DNA of 63,047 nucleotides, counting the filler, from Collodictyon triciliatum (lineage: Eukaryota), in assembly GCA_043381765.1 (NCBI GenBank). It is 8 parts of 8 records of this genome, joined end to end, with 100 filler letters (N's around TTAATTAATTAA, not from the genome) between each part and the next. Parts side by side here need not be neighbours in the genome. Positions count along the whole stretch, not along the records: positions 37,208 to 46,405 come from JBHJMP010003121.1; positions 46,506 to 55,701 come from JBHJMP010003122.1; 6 more parts are not named here. The stretch is one strand, 5' to 3'. Shown piece by piece: positions 18,512 through 62,933 of the stretch. The translations under genes were made by a program, and so were the position numbers. How positions within the stretch are numbered: position 1 is the stretch's first letter; the number at the start of each line of letters is the position of its first letter. A model generated the notes under the pieces. That model was not told the origin of the DNA. It worked only from the letters and a program-made list of their open reading frames with translations, and did not search any database.

Positions 18512-18611
18512 NNNNNNNNNNNNNNNNNNNNNNNNNNNNNNNNNNNNNNNNNNNNTTAATTAATTAANNNNNNNNNNNNNNNNNNNNNNNNNNNNNNNNN
18601 NNNNNNNNNNN

Positions 18612-27809: not shown

Positions 27810-29055
27810 NNNNNNNNNNNNNNNNNNNNNNNNNNNNNNNNNNNNNNNNNNNNTTAATTAATTAANNNNNNNNNNNNNNNNNNNNNNNNNNNNNNNNNNN
27901 NNNNNNNNNAACATAGGAGGCCTCAAGGCAGTCTTCGTTACTTATCCGAAAGGATACTCCAAAGCGAAGGCAACACAAGAACCAGCGCCCACCAAAGATA
28001 GTCCATTTACCCCGCCCCATCCCGTCGCACCGAGAACCAAGGAGCAAGAGCAAACAGCACAAGTCGAATCCAAGCTTGGAACTTCACGCACTAAAGACAG
28101 TCCGAGCAAGCAGGAGCGTATGTTTCTAAAACCGCAAACGCTTATCCATACTCCGGTTAAGCAAAGTCCACTGCCGGCTACGCATGGCTCCGAAACCAGG
28201 GGACGGTGAAGCGCCACTTCCGATAATACCAGACAAACAACGATGTATTGCTTTTTGTCAGAGTCGCCCAGCAAGAAACGCAAGGAAAGTGACCCGTTGT
28301 CCCCTCAAAAGACCCATCCTGTGGAATGAAATAGGATGTAAACCTTGTCTGAGATAGAGGGCTGAAAGGACTCGTCGGAATCGCTTATCGAAGTAACTGC
28401 CATGTGCGTACTTTCATCGACTCGACAACTTTATCCGCTCTTCTGTCAGTCTCGAATACAACCAGAAATCGCGTTGAAGTTGAATCACCTTGGGTAGAAT
28501 AGTCTGCGTGAGATAACACTTTCTTTCTACTATCTTTTTTTCTTTTTTCCTGTTTTTTCTTCCATCCAAAACACAAAACTCCAACCACACAAGCCTGGGG
28601 TTTTCTACTTTCTCATCCACAGCTCATTTTTGTCCTGGAGGCGAAGGCTGTATCCTCGGCTTTATTTTCTCTCTCGATAAACTGTTGAAAAGAAACCCAA
28701 ATGAAAAAAAAAAAAAAACACCCCAACTACCTATACACTACATAAGACTTTGTTTCGTATTTTATGGCCGCACTGTATGATTGCAATGTCATCTATCATG
28801 TGGGAATGCGTATATCTGCAAACTTTATTGAGGTTCCCTAACTCATACGACTTTTGGGTATTCGATTTATTTTAATCTTTTTCTGATGAAGCATCCTTCC
28901 AGAGAAAAAGACGCATGGCCAGCTGAAAAATACCCTCAGTGAATGGTTGGATTTTGTCTAATTACACATGATAGCCATCAAAAAAAATAATGCTAATTTA
29001 ATTATTATTATTATTATTATTGTTATTATTATTGTTATTATTATTATTATTATTG

Positions 29056-29174: not shown

Positions 29175-32100
29175 TTAAGCTGCAGCTTTCTTTTTCCATT
29201 CTACTGATTTTTCAGCGTCCTTCTCGACACCCCATCCATTCTCATAGCACTCAGCCATCATTTGAGCCTGGAACTTTGTGAACTTACCCTGCTCACAATA
29301 TGCGACAAAGTCCGCATCAAATGAAGCAGCGCCGTTTGAAAACAAGAGGGATTTGTTAAATTGACACATTCCTGTGATGTTTCTGATGTGAATATTTCCA
29401 CCCTCCAACTTTCTTGAGCCGATAATCTGAACTGCCTTCATATTTTCGACACTACTGGCATCTGTCAAGTTCACTTGATTGCTTAATTTGGTGAATGCTG
29501 TGGCGTTCTCGACAGGATTTTCTTTCTTTGCGATTAAATTCCCCTGAGTGTAGGTAATTTCTGATTTTTGTAAATCATGTACTTGACTATCGGTAGTTGG
29601 ATTACAAATACGCACTGATTTATCATAACTTCCTGAAGCCAACCAAATTTCCCTATTCGGTCCTTGAATACTGCAAACGCTAGTGACAAACTTCGTAAAC
29701 CCTTCTATTTTTTTAATGAAGGTTGCTGTGGCCAAATCCCAAATACGTATTGTCTTATCATTACTTGCAGAGGCCAACCAACTTTCACCATTCGGTCCTT
29801 GAAATTTACAGATACCGTTCACCTCACGAAGATGACCATTCAGTAATTTGATTTGGTTTCCTGTGGCTACATCCCATATACGTATTGTCTTATCACTACT
29901 TCCAGAAGCCAGCCATATTTCGCCATTCGCTCCTTGAATACTGCAAACACAGTTTACATAGTCTGTATGACCTTCTAATGTTTTGATTTTATTTCCTGTG
30001 GCTATATCCCAAATGCATATCGTTTCATCGTTGCTTCCAGATGCCAACCAGCTTTCACCGTTCGGTCCTTGAATAGTACAGAGATTATTGATAAATCTGG
30101 TGTGGCCCTCCAGTGTTTTAATATGGCATCCCGTAGCTATATCCCATATGCGTATTGTTTCATCATCGCTCCCAGAAGCCAACCAATTCTCACCATTTGG
30201 CCCTTGAATACTGCAAATACATCGCACATAATCTGTATGGCCCTCTATTACTCTTATTTTATTTCCTGTGGCTACATCCCAAATGCGTATTGTTTTATCC
30301 CAACTTCCAGAGGCTAGCAAATTTTCATCATTCGGTCCTTGAATGCTGCAAATACTGTAGACGTACTCTGTGTGACCCTTTAATAAAACAACTTGTCTTC
30401 CCGTGGTAATACTCCATATCCGTACTGTGTGATCACTACTTCCAGAAGCCAACCATATTTCACCATTCGGCCCTTGAATAGTGCAAATACTTACGACAGT
30501 GTCTGTATGACCTTCTAGTGTATCATAAAGAATTCCGAATGTTACATTATTCATATTTGTGTCATCAAAAACACAATCACCAAGCATCGAATTTGTAAAA
30601 TCGACACCATCCAAGTTGGCCCCAGTGAAGTTTGCGCCATCAAGAATTGAACTACTGAGATTTGCATGTGGAATCTTGATGTTTGATAAATCCATCCCAC
30701 TGAACGAAACATTCATGAAATTCAAAATTGTGATTGCATCAGATGCAGCCTTCGATTTGCTCTCATCAGTTCTCGACATGAACACTATTCTGAATAAAAA
30801 TGCAATGATTTGCTCACGATTCCATTCTTCACTCAGTTTTGCATCATCGAGAACTTCATCGATGAATTCCTTAACTCTTGAAAACTCGACAGGCTCTTTG
30901 TTGATTCCAGTTTCTTTTGAATAAAGGGACAAGTACTTGTAGGAGTTTAATGTTCTGGGGTGAATCCATGAGAGTTTATCAGCGAATCTGTCTCTCATTT
31001 CAGCCCAGAATACGAAAGCTTCTTTATGCTGCTTCAGTTCTTTGTAATTCATGTCCAAATACTCGCAACTGCTCCATATTCCGAGATAATCCATGGAATA
31101 TAGTTTACTGAATAAATATATCAGCGTTTTATACAGCTGAATAACTACTTTATACTCATTCTTTTCTTCCATTAGCTTAACGATTCTTTGGCATTGCGAG
31201 CCATGCTTAATTGACATGGAAGTCTTTGTCTCCTTTCTGATTACTGCTGCCTTCTGGAAACAATCGACACACTGAGCAGAACTGCATCACAAATAATCAT
31301 ATGTCACATGTGAATAAGGGTAGTATCGTAACATACTTTATCATTTTTTTTGTTGTTGTTACTATTTTGTTTTTTGTTTTCGATTTTAAATTTTGATTAT
31401 TTTGTTTTTGTATGGTTTTTTGTTCTTATTCTTTACCTTTCAAGCTCAAAGTTTGTTTTACCAACACTTTCAAGGGAAGTTGCGTAATCAACATGCTTTT
31501 CTCCCAGTGTCCTCTTTCGAATCTCCAACGTCTTCGTATAAGCCTCTAAGGCGCCTTTATAGCTGAGATGAATAAAAAAAATTTTTTTTTATTTACAAAA
31601 AAAACAACAATTAAAGCAAGGTGCAGTTTACAAAATTTTCTAACTCTCTCAAGTCATGGCTGATGTCCCCAATCATCTCATAGCAGGCCACAACATTCGG
31701 GTGATTTTCACCGAGGGCGGAAATGAAAATATCCAGAGATTGCTTCAATGAATATGATGCTTCTGTTTTCCTTGTCGAGTACATTATATAGTCAGATTAT
31801 GTAAAAAAAAATATATGAGTCTAAAAGAATAGCTATACATACTTTTCACTTGCGAGATAAACGTTTGCAATAAACTGAATTGTTAAAGCAACAGTTGCAT
31901 GGTTGATTCCCAACGATTTTTCCAGGATTAACTTTGCTTTTTCATAATTTTCTATAGACTCTCCGAACCTAGATTATTATGTCAGATCGAAATTTGCATT
32001 TTGTGGCTCAGGGCAATAAACTGTGGTGAAAATAACGATATTTTACTTCCTTTCGGCAAGATAGACGTGGCCGTAGTTCTGATATGATGTTGCAACAAGA

Positions 32101-37107: not shown

Positions 37108-40100
37108 NNNNNNNNNNNNNNNNNNNNNNNNNNNNNNNNNNNNNNNNNNNNTTAATTAATTAANNNNNNNNNNNNNNNNNNNNNNNNNNNNNNNNNNNNN
37201 NNNNNNNAAGAAATCCATGCGTCTCTTATCAAGCCTCAAGGACCTCTCTTTTCCCTTTTTTCTTTTATCTTTATCCCTGTTTTTCTTTTCTATCTCCCAC
37301 ACATCCCTACCTACTTTGGAACTACTTGCCTGATGGTTGAATGAAAGATTGTTGAGACGGGCTCGACAGCTAAGACTTTTAGAATAAAAAAAATGTGATT
37401 GAAGTGATTGAATGACTAGCAATTATAGTATTCATCTTTATTCCTTGCTATATTTGATGTTGAAACGATCGCTAACCTCTTATTCTGATGACCAAGACAC
37501 CAGCCCCATTTTTTCCACTTTTGTTCCGCCCATTATTTTATCTTTGATTTTTGCTTTGAATTCCCTGTGTGACTAAAATTCATTATAAAAAAACAATTTG
37601 TACTTGTGTCCTTGTCTCGCAAATCCCGACCAACTCCTTCAAATCAGTTTGAACAACTTCAGACCCGAATCATTCCCACATATTAAACACACTTTCATCA
37701 TTTCTATAGACACAGTCACTCAATAAATCAAGAACCACTTTGTCTCTGGACCATCAAACCCAAACACCAGTACAACACAACACGACTTTCGAATCCCTAT
37801 AGCGCATGGGCAATTGTTATCTATTAACACAAAGCAAACCAAAAAAAAACCACCGATCAACATATAGGACCAGGAAAACTGAAAAAAACCTAACAAGAAA
37901 ACATAGCTTTAGTTTCATCAAAAAGTGAAGGTTCAAACCTATGCAAGTCTTTAACCTTGTCAGAAAGCCAAAAAACTTAATCGAGAGCGGGGTTGTCCAT
38001 CAATCTCTGGGAATTAATACTAATTGTAAAGATACAAGCAAGGTCAAAAGATGATTCTTTTCAGCAAAGCTAAATATGATCGGCTCTGTTCCTGCCTTGT
38101 TTGATCCCAGGGTTCTGTTTTTACTTACCAAACCCCAACTCAAAACTCTCATAAAACTCATTTAAACATCAAAATAATTATGAATTCAAGTATTTTAATT
38201 GCATATGCTATTTGTCAAGGCTCTCATTTATACAGCAATTCGCGAGTCAAGGAGAACCGGGACGATTCGATTCACGGAGCATCCTGTAGTAGAGCATTTT
38301 TGGCCACTCATCCACAATATCTGAACTACCCAACTCTTTATATTCATTTTATTCTTTTATCACCGTAGCCATAGTCTTAGATTTATGGAATCATTCATAG
38401 TATATATTGGAATCTAATCACATCTCGTACAGCTTGGAACAATTTTCATGGGCCCGACAGCGACTAAGTCTTTGATTGCTCTGCTGCATACATCACACTC
38501 ACTTAGATGGAGTCTTCCAACGACGCAGCCTTATAATACACCCCATTTAGTCAGATACTTGCATCCATATTGGTTTTTTTCTTGTGGTTGCTTTTCTCTT
38601 CTCAACTCGACCTTTTTTTATGGTATTCGCTAATTAAAGAAAAATGAAAACATTTTCTCACCTATATATCATAAGAACATACCCTCTTCCCTCTTAATTT
38701 TTATTTTTCCATTAAGTGAAACTGCCGTCAATATAGCATGCTTGGAAGTTTAATATCAGGATAACACACTAAGCTCCTCATCGCTTCCTGCGCCTGACAT
38801 TGTTGATGAGAAAGGGCAAGTGATCAATTATCTATGGATGTCTCTTTAATATGATTGTTAAGTTTTATCAATCACGGGCTGTGTCAAAATAAATGTCGAT
38901 ATTTATTATTATTTTTCATGTTTTATATACCATACCTAGATGAACCACACTGCCCATAGGATAGAGAAAATGGCTGAGCTGTGGTCAAAAAGAGAGGGAA
39001 AATTCAACTTTAATGACTGCACCCCTACGATTGAATGTTCATTCGGCATCAGAAATGTAATAGTGAAACCTTTTTACCATGAAACTCTATCGAATAATCA
39101 AAGTTTTTCATACTTAGCATATGATGTAATATTATAAAAATAATGTTTATTTAATCTGCAACATTAATAGTTCACTATTTTACTCACCACCACCGAAGAA
39201 GAGGAAGAAATCCGTGTGATCAAAAGGCGAGCACTCAATTTACTGTTTTTGATATTTGTTAGCCCATTATTATATTGATTTACTTCTTTCAAATTAAAGA
39301 ATCGTTTCCATCAACTAATATATTTCATATTCAACAGATTATAAGCAATAGCTGATATACTTGCATAAAATCTTCAAAGGCACTAGTGGGCATGGTAAGA
39401 CTAATGTTTTTGATTTTTTTGGTGAACTCCAAAGAAATATACTTGATTTTATAATTGAATTGGTCACTAAAAATTTTGGAAACATAAAAAACAATAATCC
39501 ATTCTAATAGTTCAGAGATAGTCGCCCTATCAACGCGGCACTTTTAGTCACAAAATCACACTTCAATCAGCCGATACGAAGCATGATACATTTTACATGA
39601 ATTAATACATATGTCTTTTGATTTTATGATTCTAAGCAAACGATAGAGTCTGTTTTTTTATAATCTTGGTAAATTCTAAAATCAAACTTTCATAGGGCAT
39701 ACATGAAATTGGTGATGTATGATACATAAGAAAAGATGTTCGAAAAACAAGAGTGATTGAATTTTACGAGATAAAAAGATTTTAAGAGAATGATACCAGG
39801 TATCTTTTTAATATACAAAGTGACGACAACTGTAATTATTTATGCATTCTCAGAGTGGAATCTAACAAAAGCTTTTCATACTAGTACTTGACGAACTTTC
39901 AAGAAGGGCTCATATTCCCTATCTCATGGCACAAGGGTCTTTGCACTCGCGTTTTTTGGTTTTATACAAGTCATTCTGTGAGTTTTGATCGTTTCATTTT
40001 ATTAAGAATATCTATTTTATTTATCTTATAGATTCAAGTCTTAGGTTATTGAAAAAAATTCAATACATCGAAAAACTCATAATTAAAATGTTCGTCGCAC

Positions 40101-40857
40101 ATTTCACAAGAGAGTGGAATCTTAAAGCATGATTTCATTAGCATTCTGATAGTAGAACAATTTGGTTCTGATCAGATTTTATCATACACCAAACCAGGTA
40201 TGATTTACTTCAAAAAACGAAAATATGATCAGAATGTAAATTTCATTTGACACCAAATTTATCACATGGTTGATATTCAATAATAGAAAAAAAATACACA
40301 AACTAAGTTTTAATTAGTTAAGCAACATATTAGCATGATGTTTATCAATCAATTTATTCTTAATTTAGGTCTTTCATCGATAAACGGTTCAACCTGGCTT
40401 CTTCATGTACCCAACTGAAAAATCGCATTATTTGATTCAATATGTCATATCAAGCATAAATTATTCATCTTCAATCGGAAACTGTTCAAACTAAGGTTAT
40501 GGAAAAAATCAGATACATTCGAAAATAGAAGTGACAAAAGACAAAATCCGTGGGAAAGGGAACTGTTTCAATTTACTACTTGGAGGAGGGAGGAGGGATG
40601 GTTGACCAGAAGCTCCTAGTTTTCCCGATGGTCTGAAGTAGAGGTCTAAGAACGTACGGTGGGTGGTGTTGTGTTATGTGAATTGATTATGTCTTTGTCC
40701 AGTCATTCACCACCAAAAATATAATTAATCATAATTTTCTTTGTAAATTTCTGTCATCAAAAGTCATGTACATTTTTTGCGGTAAGGAGGCTTTATCTAA
40801 TTTGGAAACATTACCTATTTAACATATAAAATACAGCATGCATAAAGTCGAATAGTT

Positions 40858-43800
40858 TTTAATTAACAAATTTCACTTGTAAAAATATTACTTATAGTGA
40901 TATTAAAAAAATCCTATAGAATTAAGAATCATCAGAGTCTGGCCATGCTATTTACTTTACTATTAAGTTGTAAATTCAAATTTTTCCATGAAATAAATGG
41001 TATCAATAATGTAATATTTATAATATAATTGCCTCAGCAATATATATATTTTAACTAATGAAGTTTAATCAAAATGAATGGTCTGCCTACAGAATCTTCA
41101 TAATACGTCGTTTTTTATCGATTTTATTATATTGCATACATTTCATACTCTAACGTTACAAAAACTCTTCATATGGTGTATGTGCAATAAAAGCTTTTTA
41201 TATGCAGAATCTTGGTATCCGTATCTTAAATTCCGGTTTAATTAAATGAATAGATACACTTTTAGATCAAATGTGATTTTAAAAAAACTAACTAACCAAC
41301 ATATGAACCATTATGTTATCCAAAACACCCACACCATATCCCTGCTAAAAACTAGTTTGCCGCTGAATGATACATCACCCCTCCCCTTGACCGACCTGCA
41401 ATATTTGTTCCACAACTTCACGCCCATACCCATCACTTAACTAGAACTTGTTTGTTTCTCCAAGTGAAAATAATTTGTAGGTTTACCGCTAAAAAAAGAA
41501 ATCAATTTTATAAATAATCATTATCAAAACATCTAAATTAGATAAATTTTCTCCTTTATTTATTCATATATCGATTTATCAAATCCAACAAACAAACCCA
41601 CCCCTTCCAATTCTAAATTAAACAGAGGTAATAAGAAAGCATACCGATATTCATTTTTGTGTTTCCCACAAATAGCCAAGAATATGGTTGACGTTTCAAG
41701 CCCTTTTTATTTTTTTTACGATGATAATCATTCACATATATTCATAAAATCCTTTTTTAATGCATCCACACATGTTTTGTATATTCATGTTGATTTCGAG
41801 AATGATTAATCTATCTAATCCACCATATAAAGTATGATACCTATCATCGTTTGATATTGTTCGGTTTACTCATATTTGATCAATACATGAATAATTTTAT
41901 TCAATATCATAACTTTAGTCTTATCTATAGTATAATAGACTTATTTTATCCTGAGTTTCAAAGAAATTTTATAGCACACAGTTTAGAAATTCTTGGTGAA
42001 ATATAGGATTTATTTATGACATATCACGATTAATCGTCAAAATAATAAATCACTTTTATGTCAGTATGATTAGGTTTTGATCATTGTAGTCGATTCTTGT
42101 TCAATGATAAATTATATATCTATGGTTATTGTGAAAAATATGTCACTTAAAGAGAGGTTGATCAGGAATCACTATTTAGATACTTTTGATAGAAATTCAG
42201 ATAATTAATTAAATGAATAAGAAAATAAATGCAAAATAATGCTCAAAATGGTTGTAAATAATGATATCAATTAGAGATAATATCAAATACTCATACAGCA
42301 TCTTCTGGTTTTCCATCAGTTGTTAATGAAATTTTACCGAATATTAGGATGTGATTTATCGCTGAAGCCCCTATTCTGTACATGGATGATTATACTTCAA
42401 GGGTCAACATATTTTAAATATAATCAATAATGAAGTTGACTGAAAGAAAATTTGATAATTTATATTAAATCATAATTTCAATTCCCAAACAGAGGTCATC
42501 GAAATCCATGTTCAAAATAAAATTGTTTTATTTGCTCCTGTATGATAATCATGCAATATAGTCAAGCAAACATGATTTATTTTTTCATTGAATCGAGTAT
42601 AATTTTCGAATAATATGACTATTTTACAACTATGATGGTTTGATTAATTTTAATGTAAAATTTAATGGAAAAATTAAATGACTCGAATTAGTAAAGTTTA
42701 CGTTTTTTTATTAATATGAACATGATAATGAGTAATTAATAATTGTTTGATAAATTTTTCTACCAGAATTTATGAATATATTTATAATCTATTTTTCAAT
42801 ACAAGTATTAAAATATATTTTCAATAATGAAGTAATTTTTCAAAGGATTCTAATCATTATGATTCTTAAATTTTATGAGATTAAGTTTTGATATCAATGA
42901 ATTTGATAATGTTTATCCGATTAATAATTTATTACTACTCTCACTTAAACATAAAATCTCTAAGTATATTTATTTTCAATTTATGTAATTACATCATACA
43001 GCTTTTACGATTAATCAATATACCAATTGATAAATAATTAAAATTGTATGTAATTGACCAGTCATTATATTTTACACATCGTATCGTTCGTTCACCCTTT
43101 ATTTTGGAATGCTGAGAAATTCAATACGAGTTTTATGTTCAATGTATGGTATTTTTGATCAATTAATTAAAATATGGATTTTTTGTAAATTAAGAAGCCA
43201 TTATAAAGAATACACAATTTAGAATCAATATAATAATTATTTCTTAATTTTTCAAAATTTATATACGTGATATGTGAACAAAATCAAAGCAAATGCTCAA
43301 CATGGTTTTCCTTGATAATATATTTTATTCAAAATCTGACTTATTGAATGTCATGGTACTCATAACATATACCTGTTTTCTCATATTGCTTTCTTTTAAA
43401 ATAACATTAGTTGTTTTAATGATAATTTAACACACGTATTATTTATAGACTTTGTATAAATTTTTGATTTTAAAGCGCTTATTATTGATTGAAAAAGTCT
43501 TCTGTGGAATCGTCGGCTATATTAGTTACTATTATATATTGATTTAGAGCTTATAATAACCATGACTATTGGTCTAAACCAAATATAATAGGATATTTTA
43601 TCACCTAAACTTAAGTTTAAATTATGTCCTATTATTTATTCACATGTATTTATTCATAATAAGCCTACTTTGTATGAACTCCGTGTTTACTTTTACTATT
43701 GTTAGTCGTAAAATAGATTGCTTTGATTTCTAAATAGGGTTTATCTAATAATAAATTATTGAAGTTTTTTAACTACCACATCAAAATCTACATATAACTG

Positions 43801-44256
43801 GTAGAAAATGACTATGTTAAAAATATTATACTGGACAAATGAACCATTTCATGGGTCTGCATTGGTCGATGTATCATTTAATATCGATTTATTTTTTAAT
43901 TGTAGACTATGTTTCACTTTTTTAATTACTTTTATGAATCAACTGATTTATTCGCAATAATATCAAACAAAATGTTGTGAGCTCATCAATTGATATGAAC
44001 AAGAGTTCTTACATATTGAGAGATTTTTTATATAATGGTTATTGATTTAAGTTCTGTAGTTGGTTTATGTTTATTTATTTTTGAATCAAACGGAAATCAT
44101 TTGAGAGAGAGATACATTCGATATTAGCTTACTAAACTAACATTTTCTTTGGTATAAAAGCTTATCCAAAAATTTCTACATGAATTTGAAAAATTTTCTA
44201 TTTTATTTGTAGAATGACATGGAATTCAATGTCTTTTGCAGCCATGTTGCTGTTGG
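40858..44256 (+). repeat. Diverged non-coding duplicate, copy 1 (upstream of secreted WD40 gene A)
   Basis: Colinear with 46511-50044: shared blocks tttcacttgtaaaa, gccgctgaatgatac..cttcacgcccatacc..ctagaacttgt, gcataccgatatt, atattaggatgt..gcccctatt..tatacttcaa, atgctgagaaa. Confidence 0.9.
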
Positions 44257-46405
44257 GTGTGTTATTAATTTTTATGATTTTCATGTTTATTTTTCGAATC
44301 AAACGCATATTATTTATTTTAAATGTATTTTTAGGATTAATAATATGCAATCCAGTGTGTCATGTTAAAGGACAAGATCACTTGATTCGCACATTGCTAG
44401 GGCACTCTAATCACATTCGTAGAGTAGCTATTTCTTCTGATGGTGCGAAAATCGTTTCTGCAAGTTGGGATACAACAATCAAAATATGGAATCTCTCTGA
44501 TGGAGCTTTAATTCGCACACTGACAGGTCATACTGACAAAGCTGAAGGTATTTCAATTACTACTGATGGTTCAAACATTGTTTCTGGAAGCTTCGATGGG
44601 ACATTAAAAATCTGGAATCTCTCTGATGGAGCTTTGATTCGCACATTGACTGGTCATACCAATTATGTCTACAGCCTTACTATTACTCCTGATGGTTCAA
44701 AAATTGTCTCTGCAAGTAGGGATAGTACAATCAAAATTTGGAATCTTTCTGATGGAGCTTTAATTCACACATTGACTGGCCATACCAACGAAGTTACAAA
44801 TGTTGCTGTTAACCCTGATGGTTCAAAATTTGTTTCTGCAAGTTACGATAATACAATCAAAATTTGGAATCTTTCGGATGGGTCTGTGATTAGCACATTG
44901 GCAGGTCATACAAGTTATGTTGAAGGTGTTACTGTTACTCCTGATGGCTCAAAAATTGTTTCTGGAAGCTTCGATAGTACAATCAAAATCTGGAATCTTT
45001 CTGATGGAGCGTTGATTCGTACATTGATTGGTCACACAAGTGTTGTTTGGAGTGTTGCTATTACTCCTGATGGCTCAAAAATTGTCTCTGGAAGTAATGA
45101 TGGAACAATCAAAATCTGGAATCTTTCTGATGGAGCGTTGATTCGTACATTGATTGGTCACACAAGTGCTGTTTGGAATGTTGCTATTACTCCTGATGGC
45201 TCAAAAATTGTCTCTGGTAGTGCTGATAGTACGATTAAAATTTGGGGAATACCTGAGATGGCTCTTCAATCCCGTTCAAAGAGCAAGTCCCGCTCCAAGT
45301 CCCAACCTAAATCTCAATCTCAATATCAATCCCAAGATGAATACCAATATCAATCCCAAGATGAATACCAATATCAATCTCAAGATGAATACCAATATCA
45401 ATCTCAATTCTCATATCAATCTCAGTTCGAGTCCCAATTCCAATCTCCTTCAGAGTCTCCAGTTGTTCGCTCTGTAGACTGGTATGAAAAGAAAAACTAT
45501 GAAAAATTTGGATTTGAAGTCGAGATTTATAACGGGATTGCAGTGATTTCAGTGCCATTCTGCCAAACACCTAATATCCCGGAGAAGTGCAACGGAGGCT
45601 TCATTCTGACATACAAGTTAGATGGAACTTCTGGCTTGTGGATTGGCCTTAGCAAAATCAAGAATCCGTTCCTGAACCGAGACAACATGTTTGGCTTCAA
45701 CATGATTTTGAATGCGCACTATCTGATAGTCTCTGCACCGAAGTCAAAGTACATAAACACTGAAATCGGTGTTGTGGTTTTGTACACATGGAACGCAGGG
45801 CAAGATGCCTTCGTCAAAGACTCTATCATCCGCTACAGAAATACATCGAAGAATTTCGAACTCGGTGCTGCCATCTCAAATATCAACAACATCGTAGCCA
45901 TCGGAATGCCTGTGTATGACCACTCTAAAGCTGTCACAAACGCTGGATGTGCGCACATATACAAAAGGATGGACAATGGCGGATGGGGCACGAGAGTCAC
46001 CATTACTGCTCCGAACCCAAAGCTGAATGACCGCTTCGGCCAGTCCGTGTCCCTTGGAAGCGTTACAGTATTGGCAGTATCCAACAATCCCGAGACATTG
46101 TCCGACCAAGCTGTGTTTGTCTATGAATTCAAGGACAGAAAATGGAAGGTTTCACAGACCATCACTGACGTCAACAAGCTCGGATTTGGATGGGTTATTG
46201 AATTCAATACAAACGTCCTCTTTGTTTCCGCTGTGAATGATGGCACTACCGCCACCAATTCCGGGTCGATTCTGATCTACACACTTAACAATTATGGCCA
46301 ATATGCGTTTGCATCCACAATCAAGCCAAAGACTGTCGTTGCTGGGAAGCACTTTGGATTCAGCTTCAGCTTTTCTACGGATGGAGACCGACTTGCTGTG
46401 GGAGC
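44214..46405 (+). CDS. Secreted/surface protein A: signal peptide, 7 WD40 repeats, S/Q/Y-rich linker, FG-GAP (integrin-alpha-like) repeats; intron 44257-44334; 3' truncated
   Basis: Spliced N-terminus MTWNSMSFAAMLLLGLIICNPVCHVKG-QD; 7 x 42-aa GH..WN repeats; QYQSQDEY x3; FG..vs...lavgap-like units (MFGFNM..LIVSAP, DRFGQSVSL..LAVS, HFGFSFSFSTDGDRLAVG). Confidence 0.85.
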
Positions 46406-46510
46406 NNNNNNNNNNNNNNNNNNNNNNNNNNNNNNNNNNNNNNNNNNNNTTAATTAATTAANNNNNNNNNNNNNNNNNNNNNNNNNNNNNNNNNNNNNNN
46501 NNNNNTATTT

Positions 46511-49500
46511 TATAATTAAAAAATATTTCACTTGTAAAACTATTACTAATGATAGAACAAAAATCTATAAAATTAAGAATTATCATCGGAGTCTGGCTTT
46601 GCTACTTATTTCATTATTCAGTTGATAGATTTAAACCTAACATAAAATACTTGGAATCAACATTGTAATATTTATAATAAATACAATAATATCAGCTATA
46701 TATTCATTTTCTAATTTTAATCGAGATGAATGGTCTGCATACAGAATCGTCATGCTATATCGTTTGTTTTTCAATAATCGTTTTATGTATCGCCTTGTGA
46801 ATACTAAATCGACAAAAAATCTTTAAATTACGTATCTACTAGAGAAGCTTAGTTATCTACATACTCTTGGTATCCGTATTTTAAATTCCGTTTTAATTAA
46901 ATCAATAGATACACAATTGCATCAAATGTGAATTTAAAAAACAACTAACCAGAATATGAACCATTATAATATCCAAATCGAAAAACACATACCATATATC
47001 CGCTAAAAACCAGTCTGCCGCTGAATGATACACCACCCCTCCTCCTTGACTGACCTGCAATCTTTTGTCCAAAGCTTCACGCCCATACCCCTCACCTTAC
47101 TAGAACTTGTTCGTTTCTCCAAGTGAAATGATTTGTAGGTTTATCGCTCAATAAATAAACCTATATAATAATTAATCGTTGTTAAATTATCTAAATTAGT
47201 TTAATTTTCTCCCTTGGTTATATAGATTTCGATTTATCAAATCCAACAAACCCACCCCTCCCCCTTCCAATAACAATTCAATCAGAGGTAATAAGACGCA
47301 TACCGATATTCGTTTTTGCATTGTCCCGACTAACCAAGGATATGGTAGACGGTTCACGCCCTTTTATTTTTTTCGATTATCATCATTCACGTATATTCAT
47401 ATATTTCTTTTTATGAATACATAATATTTTCGTATATTTATTGATTTCTTGATGAATTATTTATTTAATCCACCACATACATTATGACTTCTATGATTAT
47501 TTCATATTATTAAGTCTGATATTGTTCAGTTTATTATCTTTGGTCAAAATATCGCTGAATATTAGAATTAAATACGATTGAAATTTAATTTATTTATGTA
47601 TTATTCATCAATTTTCAACTACGAACATTATCTCTGTATTGATGCACACGTGGAATACCTCAATGACTAAATTCTCAATCATAAATTACCTTTGAAACGA
47701 TTGTGCTTGTAAATTTATTAACATTCAGACCTTTGTTGCCTTTCTCATATTAATAATTATATTTTGTATCAAAAATCTAGTACTAACCTTAGTGTAATAG
47801 ACTTATTTTATTCAGAGCTCCAAAGAACCTTTATAGCTTATAGTCTTCAAATTCTCAGTGGAATATAGGATTTACATAAAACATATCACTATAAATAGTC
47901 AAAATAATAAAACAATTTTTTTATCAGAGTGATTTTGTTTTGATTAATATAGCTGGTTTTAGTTCAATTAATCATGTTAATATGGTGACTGTGACAAATA
48001 TGTCCTTTATAGAGAGGTCAATTAAAAATCATTTTTTAGAGACTTATGATAGAAAATTAGATAACAATTGATATGAATCAGGAAAATAAATGCATAATAA
48101 TACGGGTTGTGAATCATGAAATCTATTAGAGATGATATAAAATACTCACACAACACCATTTAATACTGAAATCAGTTATTAATGAAAATTTACTGAATAT
48201 TAGGATGTAGTTCATCTCTTGGGCCCCTATTTTGTACATAGACGGTTATACTTCAAAGGTTAAAATATTTTATATATAATCAATAATATAGTTAACTGAA
48301 AGACAATTTGCCAGGTTATATTAAATCATAATTTTAATTTCTATCAGATACTATCGAAATCCATGTTCTAAAGGAAATATTTTTGTTTGCTCCTATGATA
48401 TTCATTCGATGTAGTCAAGCGAACAGTAATTATTTTATCGTTGTATCAGAGTAAGTTATCTAACAATATGACTATTTTACAGTTATGATTGTCTGATTAA
48501 TTATATGTATAAATATGAAACGGAAACAAAAAACGAATTGAATCAGCATATCTCGATAAATATGCACATTATGATGATGAATAATTAATAGCTTGATTAA
48601 TTTTTATTGGAATTTCTTGGTATTTATATTTTTCATTTAGGGGAATATTAAAATAAATGTTCAACAAGTAAAGCAATTTTTCAAAGGATACCACTAGGGT
48701 TCTGGTTATGAATATTTTATGAGATTATATTTTACAATATTCATCTGATGAAGAATCTATAAATACATGCACTTAAATTAATTATCGTATATATCATTTT
48801 ATTTTTAATGTTATTTCCATAAATCTCATGATTAATCAATATGCAAATCGATTAGTAATTAAAATTACGTGTCATTAACCACTTCTTACTTTTAAATATC
48901 ATATCATCCGCTCATCCAATTTTTGTAATGCTGAGAAAACAAGGACTTAATGTATGATATACTTTTGGTCGATTAATTAAAATATTGGATGTTTTGTGAA
49001 TTTAGACGCTGTTTTAAAGAGAACATGATTAAAAACCAATTTATCAATGATTTCTTTACTTTATCAAATATTATATACTAAATGTGAAAAATGTAAGGAA
49101 ATGATTGACACGGTTTTCCTTGATAACATGTTTTATTCATAATTTATATAAATTTTATTTCTTAATATACATAACATATAACTGTCTTATAATATTGCAT
49201 CCTTTTAAAATCGTGCAAATTGTTTGAATAATTATAATTAATTCCATATTTTTTAATTATAGGTGTGATATATTTTGATTGAAAAGTGCATATAATTGAT
49301 TTAAAAAGTCTTTTGTGGAAGGTCAGCTATTGTGTTTATCACAATTTATTGATTTATAACTAAGACAAACCAAACCTATTCTTTTCGAACGGAGACATAT
49401 ATTATTCTATCATATAAACTTAAACTTGATTTTCCTTTGATTTATTCTCATGTCCCAATAATAATGAGGCTAATTTACATGAGTCTCATATTTTTTTATT

Positions 49501-50044
49501 GTGTTTCGTATGTCGTATGTTGGTTTATTTGTTTTGAAGGCATGATTCATCTAATAATTGATTAGGGATTTTCCTTAAGTATCAAATCTAAACCTACCTA
49601 TTATTGATACAAAAATGACCTTGCTAAAAATATAACCGAAGTCTAATGAATTTTTATCAGTTTTAATCAACAATACAGTTGATATCGAGTTATTTTGAGA
49701 TGATAACTATTTTGCATTTTTAATATAAATGAATTGATTGAATAAGTCACTATACCATCAAATAAAATAGTCATGTTTATCAATGGATATAAATGTTAGT
49801 ATTCATATTTTGAGAGATTCTATTATATGAGTATTATTGAAGTTATGGATAGATAATCTATATATGTATTTCTGAATGAATCGATGATAATTGAGTAGAT
49901 TGATTCAATATTAGGTGTTTAAACACATGTCTTGATTGGTTGTTACACCATGTCATTTAATTTTATTTTAAATGTTTAAACACTCATCACATTAGTTTAG
50001 AATGAGATTGAACTCAAAGTCATTTGCAGCTCTGTTGCTGTTGG
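46511..50044 (+). repeat. Diverged non-coding duplicate, copy 2 (upstream of secreted WD40 gene B)
   Basis: Colinear with 40858-44256, with roughly 200 nt of extra sequence near 47550-47780. Confidence 0.9.
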
Positions 50045-53000
50045 GTGAGTTTTAAATTATTTGTTTTAATTTTATTGACTTCAAATTACATAGAATTTTA
50101 ATTAATATATTTTCAGGGTTGATACTCCACAGCCAATTGTGCCTTGTTGAAGGGCAAGATGACCAAGTTTACACCATTGGTAGTCCTGGTTACGTTAACA
50201 GTCTTGCTGTTACTCCTGATGGCTCAAAAATTGTTTCCGTAGGTGGTGATAGAACAATCAAAATCTGGAATATTTCTGATGGAGCTTTGATTCGCACATT
50301 GACCGGTCATACTGGTGGGGTTTCCAGTGTTGCTGTTACTCCTGATGGCTCAAAAATTATCTCTGGAAGTGATGATAATACAATCAAAATCTGGAATCTT
50401 TCTGATGGAGCATTGATTCGCACATTGACCGGTCATACTGGTGGGGTTCGTAGTGTTGCTGTTACTCCTGATGGCTCAAAAATTGTTTCCGTAGGTGATG
50501 ATAATACAATCAAAATCTGGAATCTTTCTGATGGAGCTTTGATTCGCACATTGACTGGTCATACTAATATTGTTCGTAGTGTTGCTGTTACTCCTGATGG
50601 TTCAAAAATTGTTTCCGTAGGTGATGATAATACAATCAAAATCTGGAATCTTTCTGATGGAGCTTTGATTCGCACATTGACCGGTCATACTAATATTGTT
50701 CGTAGTGTTGCTGTTACTCCTGATGGCTCAAAAATTGTCTCTGGAGGTGATGATAAAACAATTAAAACCTGGAATCTTTCTGATGGAGCTTTGATTCGCA
50801 CATTGACTGGTCATACTAATATTGTTCGTAGTGTTGCTGTTACTCCTGATGGCTCAAAAATTGTCTCTGGAAGTGATGATATGACAATCAAAATCTGGAA
50901 TCTTTCTGATGGAGCTTTGATTCGCACATTGACTGGTCATACTAATATTGTTCGTAGTGTTACTGTTACTCCTGATGGCTCGAAAATTATTTCTGGAAGT
51001 GGTGATATGACAATCAAAATCTGGAATCTTTCTGATGGAGCTTTGATTCGCACATTGACTGGTCATACCGGTGGTGTTAGCAGTTTTGCTGTTACTCCTG
51101 ATGGCTCAAAAATTGTTTCTGGAGGGGGTGATGGAACAATCAAAATCTGGAATCTTTCTGACGGAGCTTTGATTCGCGCATTGACCGGTCATACTAATGG
51201 GGTTGGCAGTGTCACTGTTACTCCTGATGGCTCAAAAATTATCTCTGGAGGTTATGATAGTACAATCAAAATCTGGAATCTTTCTGATGGAGCTTTGATT
51301 CGCATATTGACTGGCCATACTGGTATTGTTCATAGTGTTACTGTTATTCCTGATGGCTCAAAAATTGTCTCTGGAAGTGATGATAAAACAATTAAAACCT
51401 GGAATCTTTCTGATGGAGCTTTGATTCGCACATTGATTGGTCATACTAATATTGTTCGTAGTGTTGCTTTTACTCCTGATGGCTCAAAAATTGTTTCTGG
51501 AAGTGATGATAAAACAATGAAAACCTGGAATCTTTCTGATGGAGCTTTGATTCGCACATTGACTGGTCATACCGGTGGTGTTTGGAGTGTTACTGTTACT
51601 CCTGATGGCTCAAGAATAGTATCTGGAGGTGGTGATGGAACAATCAAAATCTGGAATTTTTCTAATGGAGCTTTGATTCGCACACTGAATAGCCATATTA
51701 ATCCTGCTTACAGTGTCACTGTTACTCCTGATGGCTCAAAAATTATCTCTGGAGGTGGTGATAAGACAATCAAAATATGGAATCTTTCTGATGGAGCTTT
51801 GATTCGCACTTTGATTGGCCATACTGGTATTGTTTACAGTGTTGCTGTTTCTCCAGATGGATTAAAAGTTGTTTCTGGAAGTTGGGATAATACAATCAAA
51901 TTATGGAATCTTTCTGATGGAGCTTTGATTCGCACATTCAATGGTCATACTTTTTTTGTTCGTAGTGTTGCTGTTACTCCTGATGGCTCGAAAGTTGTTT
52001 CTGGAGGTGGTGATAATAAAATCAAAATATGGAATCTTTCTGATGGAATCTTGATTCGCACATTGAATGGTCATACTGGTGGTGTTCAAAGTGTTGCTGC
52101 TACTCCTGATGCCTCAAAAATTGTTTCTGGAAGTGGTGATAATACAATCAAATTATGGAATCTTTCTGATGGAGGTTTGATTCGCACATTGACTGGCCAT
52201 ACTGGTACTGTTTACAGTGTTGCTATCACTCCAGATGGCTCAAGAATTATTTCTGGAGGCGGTGATTATACAATCAAAATTTGGAATCTTTCTGATGATT
52301 TGATTCGCACATTGACTGGTCATACTAGTGGTGTTAACAGTGTTGCTGTAACTCCTGATGGCTCAAGAATTATTTCTGGAGGCGGTGATCATACAATCAA
52401 AATTTGGAATCTTTCTGATGGAGCTTTGATTCGCACATTGACTGGTCATACTAGTGGTGTTTGGAGTGTTGCTGTAACTCCTGATGTCTCAAGAATTATT
52501 TCTGGAGGCGGTGATTATACAATCAAAATTTGGAATCTTTCTGACGGAACTTTGATTCGCACATTGACTGGTCATACCATTTACGTTTGCAGTGTTGCTG
52601 TCACTCTTGATGGCTCAAAAATTGTTTCAGGCAGCAATGATAGAACAATCAAAATCTGGAATATTTCTGACGGAGCTTTGATTCGCACATTGACTGGTCA
52701 CACTGATATTGTTCGTAGTGTTGCTGTTACTCCTGATGGCTCAAAAATTGTTTCTGGAGGCTGGGATAATACAATCAAAATTTGGAACCTTTGCGGATAT
52801 GGATACTTCGATTGGCTTTCAAGTAAATGCAAACCATGCTCAGAGGGTACATATAACAATATTAACGATCTAAATTCATGTTCTTTGTGTCCTTCTGGAA
52901 CATATAACCCTAGAAATGGCTCTATTATTGAATCTGACTGTCTAGAATGCGATGCTGGCTTATTCAATACTTTTCCAGGCCAATCATTTTGTAGAAGTTG

Positions 53001-55701
53001 TGTCCCTGGAACATATAACCCGAGCAGGAGGTCGAGCTCTCTGTACAATCCTTGTATTAAATGCTTTGCAGGTTCTTATGGGGACAAATTTGGATTGGAG
53101 TCTTGCACTTTGTGTCCTTCAGGAACTTATGGAGTGGATATCACGGCAACCTCGAATTCTTCATGTATAGAATGTGAGCAAGGTACTTACAGCGGGGTTG
53201 AAGGTCAATCTAGATGCCAAGAAAGTAAACCTGGATTTTATTCCCCAAAAAAAGGAGCATCTATTCCATCTCCCTGTCAACCAGGAACCTACTCAAACTC
53301 TACTAAAGCAACCGTTTGCGAAAAGTGCCCAGCTGGCTCTTACAATCCTGATGTTGCATCATCTAGTGTTAGCAGCTGCTTACCATGTCCATTAGGAAGA
53401 TTTTCGTCTGAATCAGGGGCATCAACGTGCGATATTTGTCCAGCTGGTTCTTACAACCCATACCTCGGGCAGACTGGATGCATAAATTGTTCTGACGGAA
53501 CTTACAATCCACGATTTGGTTCAACAAGCCAGTCTTCATGTATCGAATGCCCAGTAGGAACTTATGGTAATGGCGACAGAGATGAATGTTTATCATGTCC
53601 AGCTGGTACATTCAACAGTAATACTGGCTCATTTAATCAAACATCATGTATTTCATGTCCAAATGGAAGCTACAGCTCAGAGAGAGGCGCATCATGCAGC
53701 TTATGCTTATCAGGATTCTATCAAAAAGAAGGAATCACAAAAGACTCAAGTTCATGCTATGCTTGTCCAAAAGGCACATTCAACTCTAACTCCGGCTCAC
53801 ATGAAAACAAATCATGCATTGAATGTCCGCAAGGTACTTGGAATGATAAGGATGGTCAAGCATCATGCACATCATGTCCAGCTGGTACATACAATAATAA
53901 AACTGGCGCATTGAATATATCACAATGTATTGAGTGTGCAAATGGAAGCTACAGCTCAGAGAGAAGCTCATCATGCAGCTTATGTTCATCAGGATTCTAT
54001 CAAAAAGAAGACGTCACAAAAGACTCAAAATCATGCCACGCTTGTCCAAAAGGCACATTCAACTCAATATCCGGCTTATATGGAAACAAATCATGTATTG
54101 TATGTCCACAAGGTACTTGGAATGATAGAGATGGTCAAGCATCATGCACATCATGTCCAACTGGTACATTCAACAACAAAACGGGCTCATTCAATCAATC
54201 ATCATGCATTTCATGTCCAGATGGAAGCTACAGCTCAGCTGGAAGCTTATCGTGCTTTTCATGCTCACCAGGATTCTATCAAAAAGAAGACATCAAGAAA
54301 GACTCTAAATCATGCTATGCTTGTCCAAAAGGCACATTCAACACAAACCCCGGCTCATATGGAAACACATCATGTATTGTATGTCCACAAGGAACTTGGA
54401 ATGATAAAAATGGTCAGGCATCATGTACATCGTGTCCAGCGGGTACATTCAACAACAAAACGGGCTCATTCAATCAATCATCGTGCATATCATGTCTTAA
54501 TGGAAGCTACAGCTCAGAAAGAAGCTCGTCATGCAGCTTATGTTCATCAGGATTCTATCAAAAAGAAGAAGTAATAAAAGACTCAAAATCATGCTATGCT
54601 TGTCCACAAGGCACATTCAACTCGAACTCCGGGTCACATGGAAACGTATCATGCACTGAATGTCCACAAGGTACCTGGAATGATAGAGATGGTCAGGCAT
54701 CATGCACATCATGTCCAGCTGGTACATTCAACAACAAAACTGGCTCATTTAATTCACCGTCATGTGTTTCATGCCCAAATGGAAGCTACAGCACAGAAAG
54801 AAGCGCTTCATGCAGTCTATGCTTATCAGGATTCTATCAAAAAGAAGGAGTAATAAAAGACTCAAAATCATGCTATGGTTGTCCAAAAGGCACATTCAAC
54901 TCAATTTCCGGCTCATATGGAAACTCATCATGCACTGAATGTCCACAAGGTACTTGGAGCGATAAAGATGGTCAAGCATCATGCACATCATGTCCAGCTG
55001 GTACATACAATAATAAAACTGGCACATACAATCAATCATCATGCATTTTGTGTCCAAATGGGAGCTACAGCTCAGAAAGAAGTGCATCATGCAGCTTATG
55101 TTTATCAGGATTCTATCAAAAAGAAGGAATAATAAAAGACTCAAACTCATGCTATTCTTGTCCAAAAGGCACATTCAACTCAAAATCCGGCTCATATGGA
55201 AATAAGTCATGTATTGAATGTCCACAAGGTACTTGGAATGATAAAAATGGTCAAGCATCATGCACATCATGTCCAGCGGGAACATTCAACAACAAAACTG
55301 GCTCATTCAACCAATCATCATGTATTTCATGTCCAAACGGAAGCTACAGCTCAGTTGGAAGCTTATCATGCAGTCTATGTTCATCAGGATTCTATCAAAA
55401 AGAAGATATCACAAAAGACTCAAAATCATGCTACACCTGTCCAAAAGGCACATTCAACTCAAACTCCGGCTCCTATGGAAATAAGTCATGTATTGAATGT
55501 CCACAAGGTACTTGGAGTGATAAAAATGGTCAAGCATCATGCACATCATGTCCAGCGGGTACATTTAACGATAAAACTAGTTCATATAATCAATCATCAT
55601 GCATTTCATGTCCAAACGGAAGCTACAGCTCAGTTGGAAGCTTATCATGCAGTCTATGTTCATCAGGATTCTATCAAAAAGAAGATATCACAAAAGACTC
55701 A
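50002..55701 (+). CDS. Secreted/surface protein B: signal peptide, 21 WD40 repeats, Cys-rich (GCC2/GCC3, ephrin-receptor-like) repeats; intron 50045-50116; 3' truncated
   Basis: Spliced N-terminus MRLNSKSFAALLLLGLILHSQLCLVEG-QD; 21 repeats of GHTxxVxSVAVTPDGSKIVSGxxDxTIKIWNLSDGALIRTLT; then about 970 aa of CPxGT(Y/F)..C..C units. Confidence 0.9.
50179..52790 (+). repeat. 21 tandem 126-nt WD40 coding repeats (one unit 123 nt)
   Basis: Near-invariant ggaatctttctgatggagctttgattcgcacattga every 126 nt. Confidence 0.95.
53590..55701 (+). repeat. 279-nt (93-aa) higher-order Cys-rich coding repeat, about 7.5 copies to contig end
   Basis: caggattctatcaaaaagaa at 53711, 53990, 54269, 54548, 54827, 55106, 55385, 55664. 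Confidence 0.95.
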
Positions 55702-55893
55702 NNNNNNNNNNNNNNNNNNNNNNNNNNNNNNNNNNNNNNNNNNNNTTAATTAATTAANNNNNNNNNNNNNNNNNNNNNNNNNNNNNNNNNNNNNNNNNNN
55801 NTTATTTTTTTTTCATAAAAAAAAAAACACCATTTTAAAAAATTTTTTTAAAAAAAACCTAAAAAAGAAAAAAAAAAAAAAAAAAAAAGATAG

Positions 55894-59684: not shown

Positions 59685-60078
59685 GTATGTTTGCCATCAT
59701 ATTGCATGCAATTTTTCCTATCTTTGTTTTTTTGTTTTGTTTTGTTTTGTTTTGTTTTGTTTTGTTTTGTTTTGTTTTGTTTTGTTTTGTTTTGTTTTGT
59801 TTTGTTTTGTTTTGTTTTGTTTTGTTTNNNNNNNNNNNNNNNNNNNNNNNNNNNNNNNNNNNNNNNNNNNNTTAATTAATTAANNNNNNNNNNNNNNNNN
59901 NNNNNNNNNNNNNNNNNNNNNNNNNNNATGATTTCTTTTTTTTTTTTTTTTTTTTGTTATTGTTTTTGTTGTTGTTAGAAAATGATAAGCATCGTTGGAA
60001 TGGGGATATTTGTTTTTGGTCACTCCAGAGAGAGAAACGATCATCAGGAGGCCCAGATGATAAACAACGGCCTCTTAC

Positions 60079-62933
<2,855 letters not shown>

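Follow-up and report, generated by a model that had tools for sequence, protein, structure and literature searches.

Two Collodictyon triciliatum genes with predicted signal peptides ahead of WD40 arrays of variable top face: candidate secreted recognition proteins

Introduction

To our knowledge, WD40 repeat arrays with a hypervariable top face have so far been understood either as intracellular sensors, in the NOD-like receptors (NLRs) of fungi, or as uncharacterised bacterial proteins. Arrays of this type are described here for two genes (gene 1 and gene 2) of Collodictyon triciliatum, found in a 63,047-nt stretch of its genome assembly (GCA_043381765.1) that was analysed as a whole and is called the window below. 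An original prediction from the same DNA had proposed that both belong to a family of extracellular receptors in which variable propellers are carried on interchangeable stalks.

Among the closest described systems, the HNWD (NACHT-WD40) allorecognition proteins HET-E and HET-D of the fungus Podospora anserina are likewise built of WD40 units of 42 residues that are very strongly conserved within a protein. According to the accessible part of the article by Paoletti et al., four of their codons are positively selected and lie 'in pairs' (7/9 and 25/27) around conserved residues, and the variable codons belong to the interaction surface of the propeller, with concerted evolution of the units (PMC1805685). 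A broader survey by Hu et al. arrived at 305 highly repetitive WD40 proteins, of which 50% were bacterial and 36% fungal, with none from animals or plants in the portion of the text available, and it remarked on the diversity of their predicted hotspot sites (PMC5587647); the supplementary taxon tables of that survey may include protist members. Highly repetitive WD40 arrays with variable top faces are thus apparently the known part of what is reported below, and their probable export in a eukaryote, on extracellular stalks, the new part.

Results

Two genes start with predicted signal peptides split at the same codon

As the original prediction had stated, both genes start with homologous exons, and the GT-AG introns that separate these from the rest of the coding sequence are in phase 1 and interrupt the same codon (Table 1): 14 homologous codons are followed by the same Gly codon, split after its first base. 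The intron of gene 2 carries an in-frame stop and must therefore be removed by splicing; that of gene 1 is open in frame, so its splicing is deduced by homology only. Exon 2 extends to the scaffold end in each gene, with the consequence that both 3' ends are cut, at 46405 in gene 1 and at 55701 in gene 2. Upstream of the start codons, in-frame stops were found at a distance of 9 codons (TGA) in gene 1, 3 codons (TAG) in gene 2 and 11 codons in L001, a complete relative from metagenome data that is described below.

The N-termini of the three proteins consist of a short n-region, a hydrophobic core of 11-24 residues and a -3/-1 site of small residues, and in each protein the N-terminus is the sole hydrophobic 19-residue window (Kyte-Doolittle average over 19 residues, KD19, of at least 1.6). 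Around 10 residues lead from the signal peptide to the closing strand and the first GH of the WD40 array in all three; as the signal peptide adjoins the first blade, there is no room for a NACHT-type domain. Together with the cysteine-rich and FG-GAP_2 tails described below, these signal peptides, predicted in three of three proteins, agree with the proposed secreted or surface location, and an extracellular location can be regarded as well supported in silico.

The WD40 arrays vary at five columns per unit

Gene 1 contained seven stretches (E 4e-77) and gene 2 contained 21 (E 6e-223) that matched the Pfam WD40 family (PF00400, cut-off 27 bits), in agreement with the 7 and 21 copies of a 42-residue unit that had been counted before, apart from one shorter unit in gene 2 (Table 1). 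Tandem Repeats Finder (TRF) detected a period of 126 nt, with 6.5 copies and 79% matches in gene 1 and 20.6 copies and 87% matches in gene 2, and between each gene 2 unit and the unit closest to it, 4-19 of 126 nt differed. The scaffold had been called nearly invariant at the DNA level, a description that these values do not sustain. The units of gene 1 were as distant from each other as from those of gene 2.

With the G of GH taken as column 1, the entropy over the 28 units of both genes was 2.1, 2.8, 3.0, 2.5 and 2.9 bits at columns 4, 5, 7, 23 and 25, respectively, and at most 1.7 bits in all the remaining columns; variation is thus concentrated where it had been noticed, near GH and at the neighbours of the conserved Asp. 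Columns 20 (S), 24 (D) and 30 (W) were invariant and column 2 (H) almost so, and the Asp-His-Ser-Trp stabilising set is retained in a near-fixed blade scaffold that matches Pfam WD40 and has no conserved cysteines. In unit identity, in the Asp-His-Ser/Thr-Trp set and in hotspot diversity the arrays resemble the highly repetitive WD40 class of Hu et al. (2017), a resemblance judged without applying the identity threshold of that paper.

The head of gene 1 was modelled with AlphaFold2 (AF2) on an alignment of 4 rows, made of heptads of the window itself, giving a predicted local distance difference test (pLDDT) value of 95.3, a predicted template modelling (pTM) score of 0.91 and 28 strands, arranged in the model as seven four-stranded blades plus an N-terminal closing strand. 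The best solved matches found by Foldseek were seven-bladed WD40 propellers with template modelling (TM) scores of 0.90-0.93, among them the designer proteins 7big (TM 0.93) and 7bie (TM 0.90), at 48% identity; 2ymu (a 'highly repetitive propeller'), PkwA and WDR5 were also recovered.

In WD40 topology, the D-A loop, the start of strand A and the B-C turn form the top face of the propeller, and the A-B and C-D loops the bottom. Columns 4 and 5 lie in the model just before strand A, column 7 is the second residue of this strand, and columns 23 and 25 stand on either side of the Asp of the B-C turn, so the model places all five variable columns on the top face. By the same topology, the A-B and C-D loops, including a W-N-x-S motif, face the bottom. 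As five residues vary in every blade, about 35 variable residues would be exposed on the top face of each propeller, and the array of gene 2 probably forms three such propellers. The earlier assignment of the variable sites to the top face, in the manner of HET-E and HET-D, is upheld by the model and by the pairing of the codons described in the accessible part of the HET-E/HET-D study (PMC1805685).

The variable codons show an excess of non-synonymous change

Rates of non-synonymous (dN) and synonymous (dS) substitution were estimated by the Nei-Gojobori method. For units 2-20 of gene 2, dN and dS were 0.92 and 0.39 at the variable codons and 0.069 and 0.189 in the remaining 35 columns; for units 1-5 of L001, the values were 0.70 and 0.27 at the variable codons and 0.046 and 0.254 in the scaffold. 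Overall, dN/dS was 2.1-2.6 at variable codons and 0.2-0.5 in the scaffold. Gene 2 units differed at positions 1 and 2 of the variable codons by 0.29-0.67 per pair, and at scaffold third positions by at most 0.56, mostly below 0.3. When changes were reconstructed by parsimony on a tree of scaffold sites, the five codons had accumulated 75.2 non-synonymous and 9.8 synonymous changes (ratio 2.1; binomial p 0.015), a rate 4.6 times the synonymous rate of the scaffold, and the other 37 columns gave a ratio of 0.47. The expected excess of dN over dS at top-face sites was therefore found in gene 2 and in L001, and the signal of diversification, although moderate, is replicated in an independent gene.

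Scaffold differences, counted as the mean per 69 nt, amounted to 7.0 within gene 2, 6.6 within L001 and 12.5 within gene 1, compared with 10.7 between genes 1 and 2 and 12-12.7 between L001 and either of them. No position-by-position correspondence between the units of gene 1 and L001 was detected in these distances. Units 5 and 6 of gene 1 differed from gene 2 units by 3-4 of 69 nt, whereas the flanking non-coding DNA of the two genes was 14-35% different. This pattern fits amplification and exchange of units within loci, and probably also between loci.

The C-terminal modules differ between members

Behind its linker, gene 1 encodes an FG-GAP_2 repeat domain (Table 1), which may be read as a second propeller; against a cut-off of 23 bits, FG-GAP_2 scored 43.6 bits in this tail, 102.3 bits in that of L001 and 40.3 bits in P0245, a protein considered below. 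Gene 2 continues into a stalk in which Ephrin_rec_like (PF07699, cut-off 23.1) matched 21 stretches (E 8e-146). This stalk has 102 Cys and 31 N-x-S/T sequons in 961 residues, and its final part is made of 7.6 copies of a 279-nt (93-residue) super-repeat with 10 Cys each. NCD3G and a TNFR-like family also exceeded their cut-offs there, and the family of Giardia variant-specific surface proteins (VSP, PF03302) matched at E 3.4e-4 and 20 bits, below its cut-off of 31.4.

A complete relative has the same layout

Metagenome data were scanned with six exact 8-residue words of gene 1, so that the finds are a lower bound. The scan returned 235 relatives, 80 loci of which were kept, and the family motif was present in one of these 80, L001. 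Its contig of 2429 nt contains a single uninterrupted open reading frame (69-2390, 773 residues) with no intron, in the order signal peptide, seven WD40 units, (SQ)n linker, FG-GAP_2 domain and stop codon. L001 therefore provides an independent and complete instance of the layout, from signal peptide through WD40 head and linker to second module.

The WD40 units of L001 were 71% identical to those of gene 1, whereas its FG-GAP_2 domain (E 1.6e-29) had 23% identity to that of gene 1. Heads are thus much better conserved than tails, which fits the 'interchangeable stalks' of the original prediction, as does the difference in C-terminal modules between members. A C-terminal anchor had also been envisaged; the complete L001 protein has no membrane anchor and no second hydrophobic segment in KD19 windows. 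Its sixth unit (L001:840-870) carries an insertion of 4 residues exactly in the variable B-C turn, and therefore the length of a top-face loop varies too.

One close relative of the gene 1 tail emerged from a full scan with HMMER: P0245, at 83% identity, which represents 7 short clustered proteins of two sources. Beyond it, identity was no more than 35% among the matches listed; a word-indexed protein search with the same tail gave just six weak FG-GAP_2 matches (22-30% identity). Searches with the whole of gene 1 and with the WD40/cysteine junction of gene 2 each returned at least 120 matches, dominated by generic long WD40 proteins, and are uninformative on family size because paralogues with fewer repeats rank below the matches listed. 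A protein-cluster look-up with gene 1 yielded separate FG-GAP_2 or WD40 clusters (scores up to 0.86) and none with the combined architecture, and L001 had no exact match in the protein collection.

Related cassettes are found in bacterial proteins that appear secreted

Among the matches listed for the gene 2 junction, the nearest cassettes by identity were those of ten metagenome proteins labelled 'WD40 repeat protein/subtilase' (59-64%), and the fungal arrays P0148, P0154 and P0236 had about 50% identity. The closest cassette of all those listed, 65% identical to gene 2 over 291 residues, belongs to P0161, a bacterial protein of 2593 residues with a signal-like N-terminus, a closing strand, GH and 13 WD40 units. 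Its entropy peaks, of 1.7-2.6 bits, fall at columns 4, 5, 7, 23 and 25, with at most 0.9 bits elsewhere, and its stalk contains six CARDB stretches and a dockerin-like tail that remained under the cut-off. P0222 and P0150 combine signal-like N-termini and WD40 arrays with sorting domains of the type IX secretion system (T9SS) that scored above the cut-off. These three proteins are thus probably extracellular, judging from their domains. The statement that WD40 proteins are normally intracellular consequently holds for eukaryotes only, since bacteria appear to export hypervariable WD40 heads. A recent origin of the WD40 cassette shared with secreted bacterial proteins, by horizontal transfer in one direction or the other, is likely.

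The putative cleavage regions are alike in genes 1 and 2 (44335-44372 and 50117-50154), P0150 and P0161, with a small residue, Gly and Gln ahead of the closing strand and GH; the eukaryotic signal peptide might descend from a bacterial one, the alternative being convergence. In an uncultured bacterium (L081:1251-7868, plus strand), a stalk 75% identical to residues 636-2593 of P0161 is preceded by a different N-terminal head, nidogen-like by eye, so bacterial heads too appear to be swapped on one stalk.

The W-N-x-S sequon was present in 32 of 35 family units compared with 98 of 3249 units in 238 WD40 match proteins, a background that excludes six FG-GAP matches and all proteins numbered after P0244. 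An adaptation to N-glycosylation was considered and rejected, as three bacterial proteins, one of them without any sign of secretion, carry the sequon in 8 of 11 to 11 of 12 units. The family sites may well be glycosylated all the same.

The genes share a duplicated upstream block

Some 3.4 kb of DNA upstream of both genes (Table 1), with 24-31% GC, were 65-86% identical in blastn and MAFFT windows, with a peak of 82-86% at 41290-41730. Hidden upstream exons, for instance of a NACHT domain, were sought and rejected: there is no open frame of at least 90 aa, and the tblastx matches are filled with stops in all frames. The block is duplicated non-coding DNA. Both genes might use it as a common promoter or regulatory region, or it might belong to a more extensive duplicated segment or mobile element.

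Table 1. Position of the features of genes 1 and 2 in the window.
Feature	Position	Strand	Description
Gene 1 upstream block	40856..44213	+	Non-coding; homologous to gene 2 upstream block
Gene 1 exon 1	44214..44256	+	ATG 44214; n-region and most of h-region; ends on first base of Gly codon
Gene 1 intron	44257..44334	+	78 nt, GT..AG, phase 1; open in frame when read through
Gene 1 exon 2 start	44335..44372	+	Predicted signal-peptide end; -3/-1 pattern V-K-G before QDH
Gene 1 WD40 domain	44373..45284	+	N-terminal closing strand and 7 units of 42 residues
Gene 1 linker	45285..45476	+	Low-complexity S/K/Q/Y; 24-nt tandem repeat at 45321-45407
Gene 1 FG-GAP_2 repeat domain	45477..46405	+	Pfam PF14312, E 3.5e-11; cut by scaffold end
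Artificial joint	46406..46505	.	Terminates gene 1 scaffold
Gene 2 upstream block	46508..50001	+	Paralogous to 40856-44213
Gene 2 exon 1	50002..50044	+	ATG 50002; predicted signal-peptide start
Gene 2 intron	50045..50116	+	72 nt, GTGAGT..CAG, phase 1; in-frame stop when unspliced
Gene 2 exon 2 start	50117..50154	+	Predicted signal-peptide end; V-E-G before QDD
Gene 2 WD40 array	50155..52818	+	Closing strand and 21 units, one of 41 residues
Gene 2 cysteine-rich stalk	52819..55701	+	21 Ephrin_rec_like stretches; cut by scaffold end
Artificial joint	55702..55801	.	Terminates gene 2 scaffold

The window is a chain of separate scaffolds

The window consists of separate small scaffolds chained artificially in order of decreasing length, with pieces of 9209 (with an internal gap of 422 N), 9202, 9198, 9198, 9198 and 9196 nt followed by shorter ones. 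Each joint is built of 44 N, TTAATTAATTAA (a 12-base six-frame stop linker) and another 44 N, and the joints lie at 9210-9309, 18512-18611, 27810-27909, 37108-37207, 46406-46505, 55702-55801 and 59828-59927. Adjacency across them is therefore unsafe ground for findings. Gene 1 is on the piece 37208-46405 and gene 2 on the piece 46506-55701; as these are different scaffolds, the two genes are not genomic neighbours, and inspection of the sequence downstream of each linker showed no continuation of either coding frame. Two paralogous scaffolds, of 9198 and 9196 nt, stand side by side in a chain sorted by length, which is a puzzling placement.

The host DNA is AT-rich (about 35% GC), with GT-AG introns and abundant simple repeats. 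Microsatellites or homopolymers terminate most pieces, including an exact (TTTTG) run of 19.6 copies at the scaffold end 59730-59827 and, at further ends, (ACTATG)n, (TAT)n, poly-A and a 10-nt repeat, and simple repeats appear to be the cause of the assembly breaks. An Rfam search gave no match anywhere in the window.

Other genes were noticed on the remaining pieces. At 29178-31286 (minus strand), one long open frame encodes a pentapeptide-repeat region (Pfam Pentapeptide, E 5.4e-14) followed by at least six WD40 stretches (E 2.4e-58), in which the insertion 'QGPN(G/D)E' recurs. A signal peptide was not noticed in this frame, which represents a second, distinct type of WD40 gene in the same assembly. 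An island of 62% GC at 2001-4000, within a scaffold of otherwise about 35% GC, contains exons of a Rac/Rho-type small GTPase at 2815-3756 (minus strand), with GC-rich and microsatellite-rich (CACT-type) spacers between them. A FEN1-like N-terminal exon, named by eye, lies at 5093-5230 (plus strand) and is followed by a long simple repeat coding for K/Q/T. Part of a P-type ATPase (Pfam E1-E2_ATPase, E 2.9e-14) is encoded at 62373-62933 (minus strand). The last two are ordinary eukaryotic genes, and therefore the assembly is eukaryotic.

Discussion

We consider it rather probable, though well short of certain, that the two genes encode paralogous eukaryotic proteins that are secreted, bind or recognise their targets with a specificity that resides in the top face, and have been diversified by unit exchange and selection. 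The signal peptide would route these proteins into the secretory pathway and be cleaved ahead of the WD40 head. One very stable propeller in gene 1, or three in gene 2, would then display their variable residues, about 35 each, on the top face, and the linker and second module would space, multimerise or tether the head: an FG-GAP_2 domain behind the linker in gene 1, and a long, disulfide-rich rod of ephrin-receptor-like modules in gene 2. Given the absence of an anchor from L001, proteins of the gene 1 type are probably soluble. New variants would arise by duplication, loss and exchange of units within and between loci, and would be retained by diversifying selection. As targets, foreign surfaces or particles, or conspecific cells, are favoured.

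Several observations weigh against this reading. At the variable codons of gene 1 the synonymous sites are saturated and the ratio does not exceed 1 (0.45 when columns 21-22 are added). Where it does, dN is biased upward, because the codons were picked after their variation had been seen; the local test reaches only p 0.015, and recombination between units breaks the assumption of a single tree on which the parsimony test is based. No ligand is indicated by any result for any member, and only two family copies, both in the window, were seen in this genome. The signal peptides were called by manual criteria, and, being frequent in three bacterial proteins too, the W-N-x-S sequon does not point to adaptation to the secretory pathway. 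AF2 without an alignment gave an unusable model of the 21-unit array (pLDDT 57.1). The scaffold ends remove the 3' ends of both genes, and gene 2 may therefore have a membrane anchor or a cytosolic tail.

A more specific history is possible, though we consider it less likely than not: the head of a secreted bacterial WD40 protein would have been acquired by horizontal transfer, put on several different extracellular stalks and expanded into a germline-encoded family of propeller-based variable receptors or opsonins. The bacterial-style start, with signal peptide, closing strand and GH, may have come along with the head and been split later by the intron. Diversifying by unit exchange under positive selection, such a family would be an extracellular counterpart of fungal HET-E and a third repeat architecture for variable recognition beside immunoglobulin and leucine-rich repeats (LRRs).

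A quite different view is that these are secreted structural or adhesive proteins of a matrix or coat, with an unconstrained top face at which drift escaped homogenisation by chance. The modest dN/dS excess (2.1, p 0.015) at sites chosen post hoc, the gene 1 ratio and the lack of an indicated ligand would all suit drift. Neutral sites, however, would not exceed the synonymous rate, and the five codons change at 4.6 times that of the scaffold; furthermore, the excess recurs in the independent L001 (0.70/0.27), the same five columns vary in the bacterial P0161, and in HET-E and HET-D the paired positions are described, in the part of the article available, as positively selected and on the interaction surface (PMC1805685). 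We therefore regard drift as unlikely, while giving it serious weight. A surface coat that is switched or varied to evade recognition, as in the Giardia VSPs, is improbable. It is brought to mind by the CxxC-type cysteine modules of the gene 2 stalk and their weak VSP match (E 3.4e-4, 20 bits), but this match is under the cut-off of 31.4, the gene 1 type and L001 have no cysteine stalk and L001 no anchor, nothing hints at a parasitic lifestyle, and the variable part is the propeller face typical for binding sites.

The remaining alternatives concern the sequence itself. If the N-termini were mis-modelled, the proteins could be ordinary cytosolic WD40 proteins, or else the loci could be dead copies; the splice models do come from sequence only, that of gene 1 from homology across an intron that is open in frame. 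Nevertheless, the cytosol is not where ephrin-receptor-like modules with 102 Cys should be able to fold, each of the three ATGs has a stop a short way upstream, the layout recurs in L001 in an uninterrupted frame, and frames of 2.1 and 5.6 kb remain open with a scaffold dN/dS of 0.24-0.36, all of which leaves this explanation with little credit, at best as much as the evasive coat. Bacterial contamination, by which both scaffolds would be foreign to the eukaryotic assembly, is very improbable. It would account for cassettes 59-65% identical to bacterial secreted proteins and for genes that are, one short intron aside, single long exons; it would not account for GT-AG introns at the same codon in both genes, one of them obligatory, nor for 3.4 kb of upstream DNA with 24-31% GC and no open frame of at least 90 aa, which is unlike bacteria, and the Ephrin_rec_like arrays would fit a eukaryotic origin.

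If such arrays really are exported on interchangeable stalks in this eukaryote, the WD40 propeller can act as an extracellular, evolvable binding scaffold. A third repeat fold would then be available for building extracellular recognition repertoires, and the arrays would be a concrete instance of a recognition module common to bacteria and a eukaryote. Its very stable and naturally diversified propellers could also serve as starting material for engineered binders.

Comparison with known systems

The variable lymphocyte receptors (VLRs) of lampreys and other LRR receptors combine a conserved repeat scaffold with one variable face and exchange of repeat units. VLRs have a solenoid fold and are assembled somatically, whereas nothing here suggests somatic rearrangement.

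Among WD40 proteins, HET-E and HET-D are the closest in detail: their codons 7/9 and 25/27, as numbered in the available part of the study, correspond to columns 5/7 (around Val6) and 23/25 (around Asp24) of our units (PMC1805685), and their positive selection at paired top-face codons and concerted evolution of units are also seen here. HNWD proteins differ in being cytosolic, with HET and NACHT domains before the repeats, whereas the genes described here encode a predicted signal peptide directly next to the first blade, along with partner domains of extracellular type. The bacterial P0161 shares with genes 1 and 2 the five variable columns and an N-terminal WD40 head on an adhesion-type stalk; the bacterial arrays (2ymu, P0161, P0222 and P0150) differ in the absence of an intron and in their stalks, which are of CARDB, FN3-like or T9SS-sorting type, with the sub-threshold dockerin-like tail.

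Phrase searches of the literature, in which most subscription journals are outside coverage, brought no secreted eukaryotic member of the WD40 sequence family to light, and in the literature searched the term 'extracellular WD40' was used only for CRINKLY4, which has an RCC1-like propeller, and in a cyanobacterial review. A search on secreted WD40/FG-GAP proteins in protists brought up no such family in the titles and the beginnings of abstracts of the papers listed. The ectodomain of the plant CRINKLY4, as described in the accessible part of the preprint, consists of a seven-bladed propeller, which the authors call WD40, followed by a cysteine-rich TNFR-like domain (bioRxiv 10.1101/2020.08.10.245050), a layout of head and cysteine stalk that resembles gene 2. 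According to the same part of the text, its propeller is closest to RCC1-type folds (UVR8, BLIP-II), with one disulfide per blade (bioRxiv 10.1101/2020.08.10.245050), and it is a single copy of low internal identity followed by a kinase, whereas the blades described here are hypervariable. The beta-propeller lectins of the tectonin and tachylectin type, as far as the available parts of the sources describe them, belong to propeller families other than WD40 and lack near-identical 42-residue units, but they are extracellular and bind foreign surfaces, and a coral tachylectin is highly diverse and under positive selection; these lectins are a plausible functional analogue of the proteins described here.

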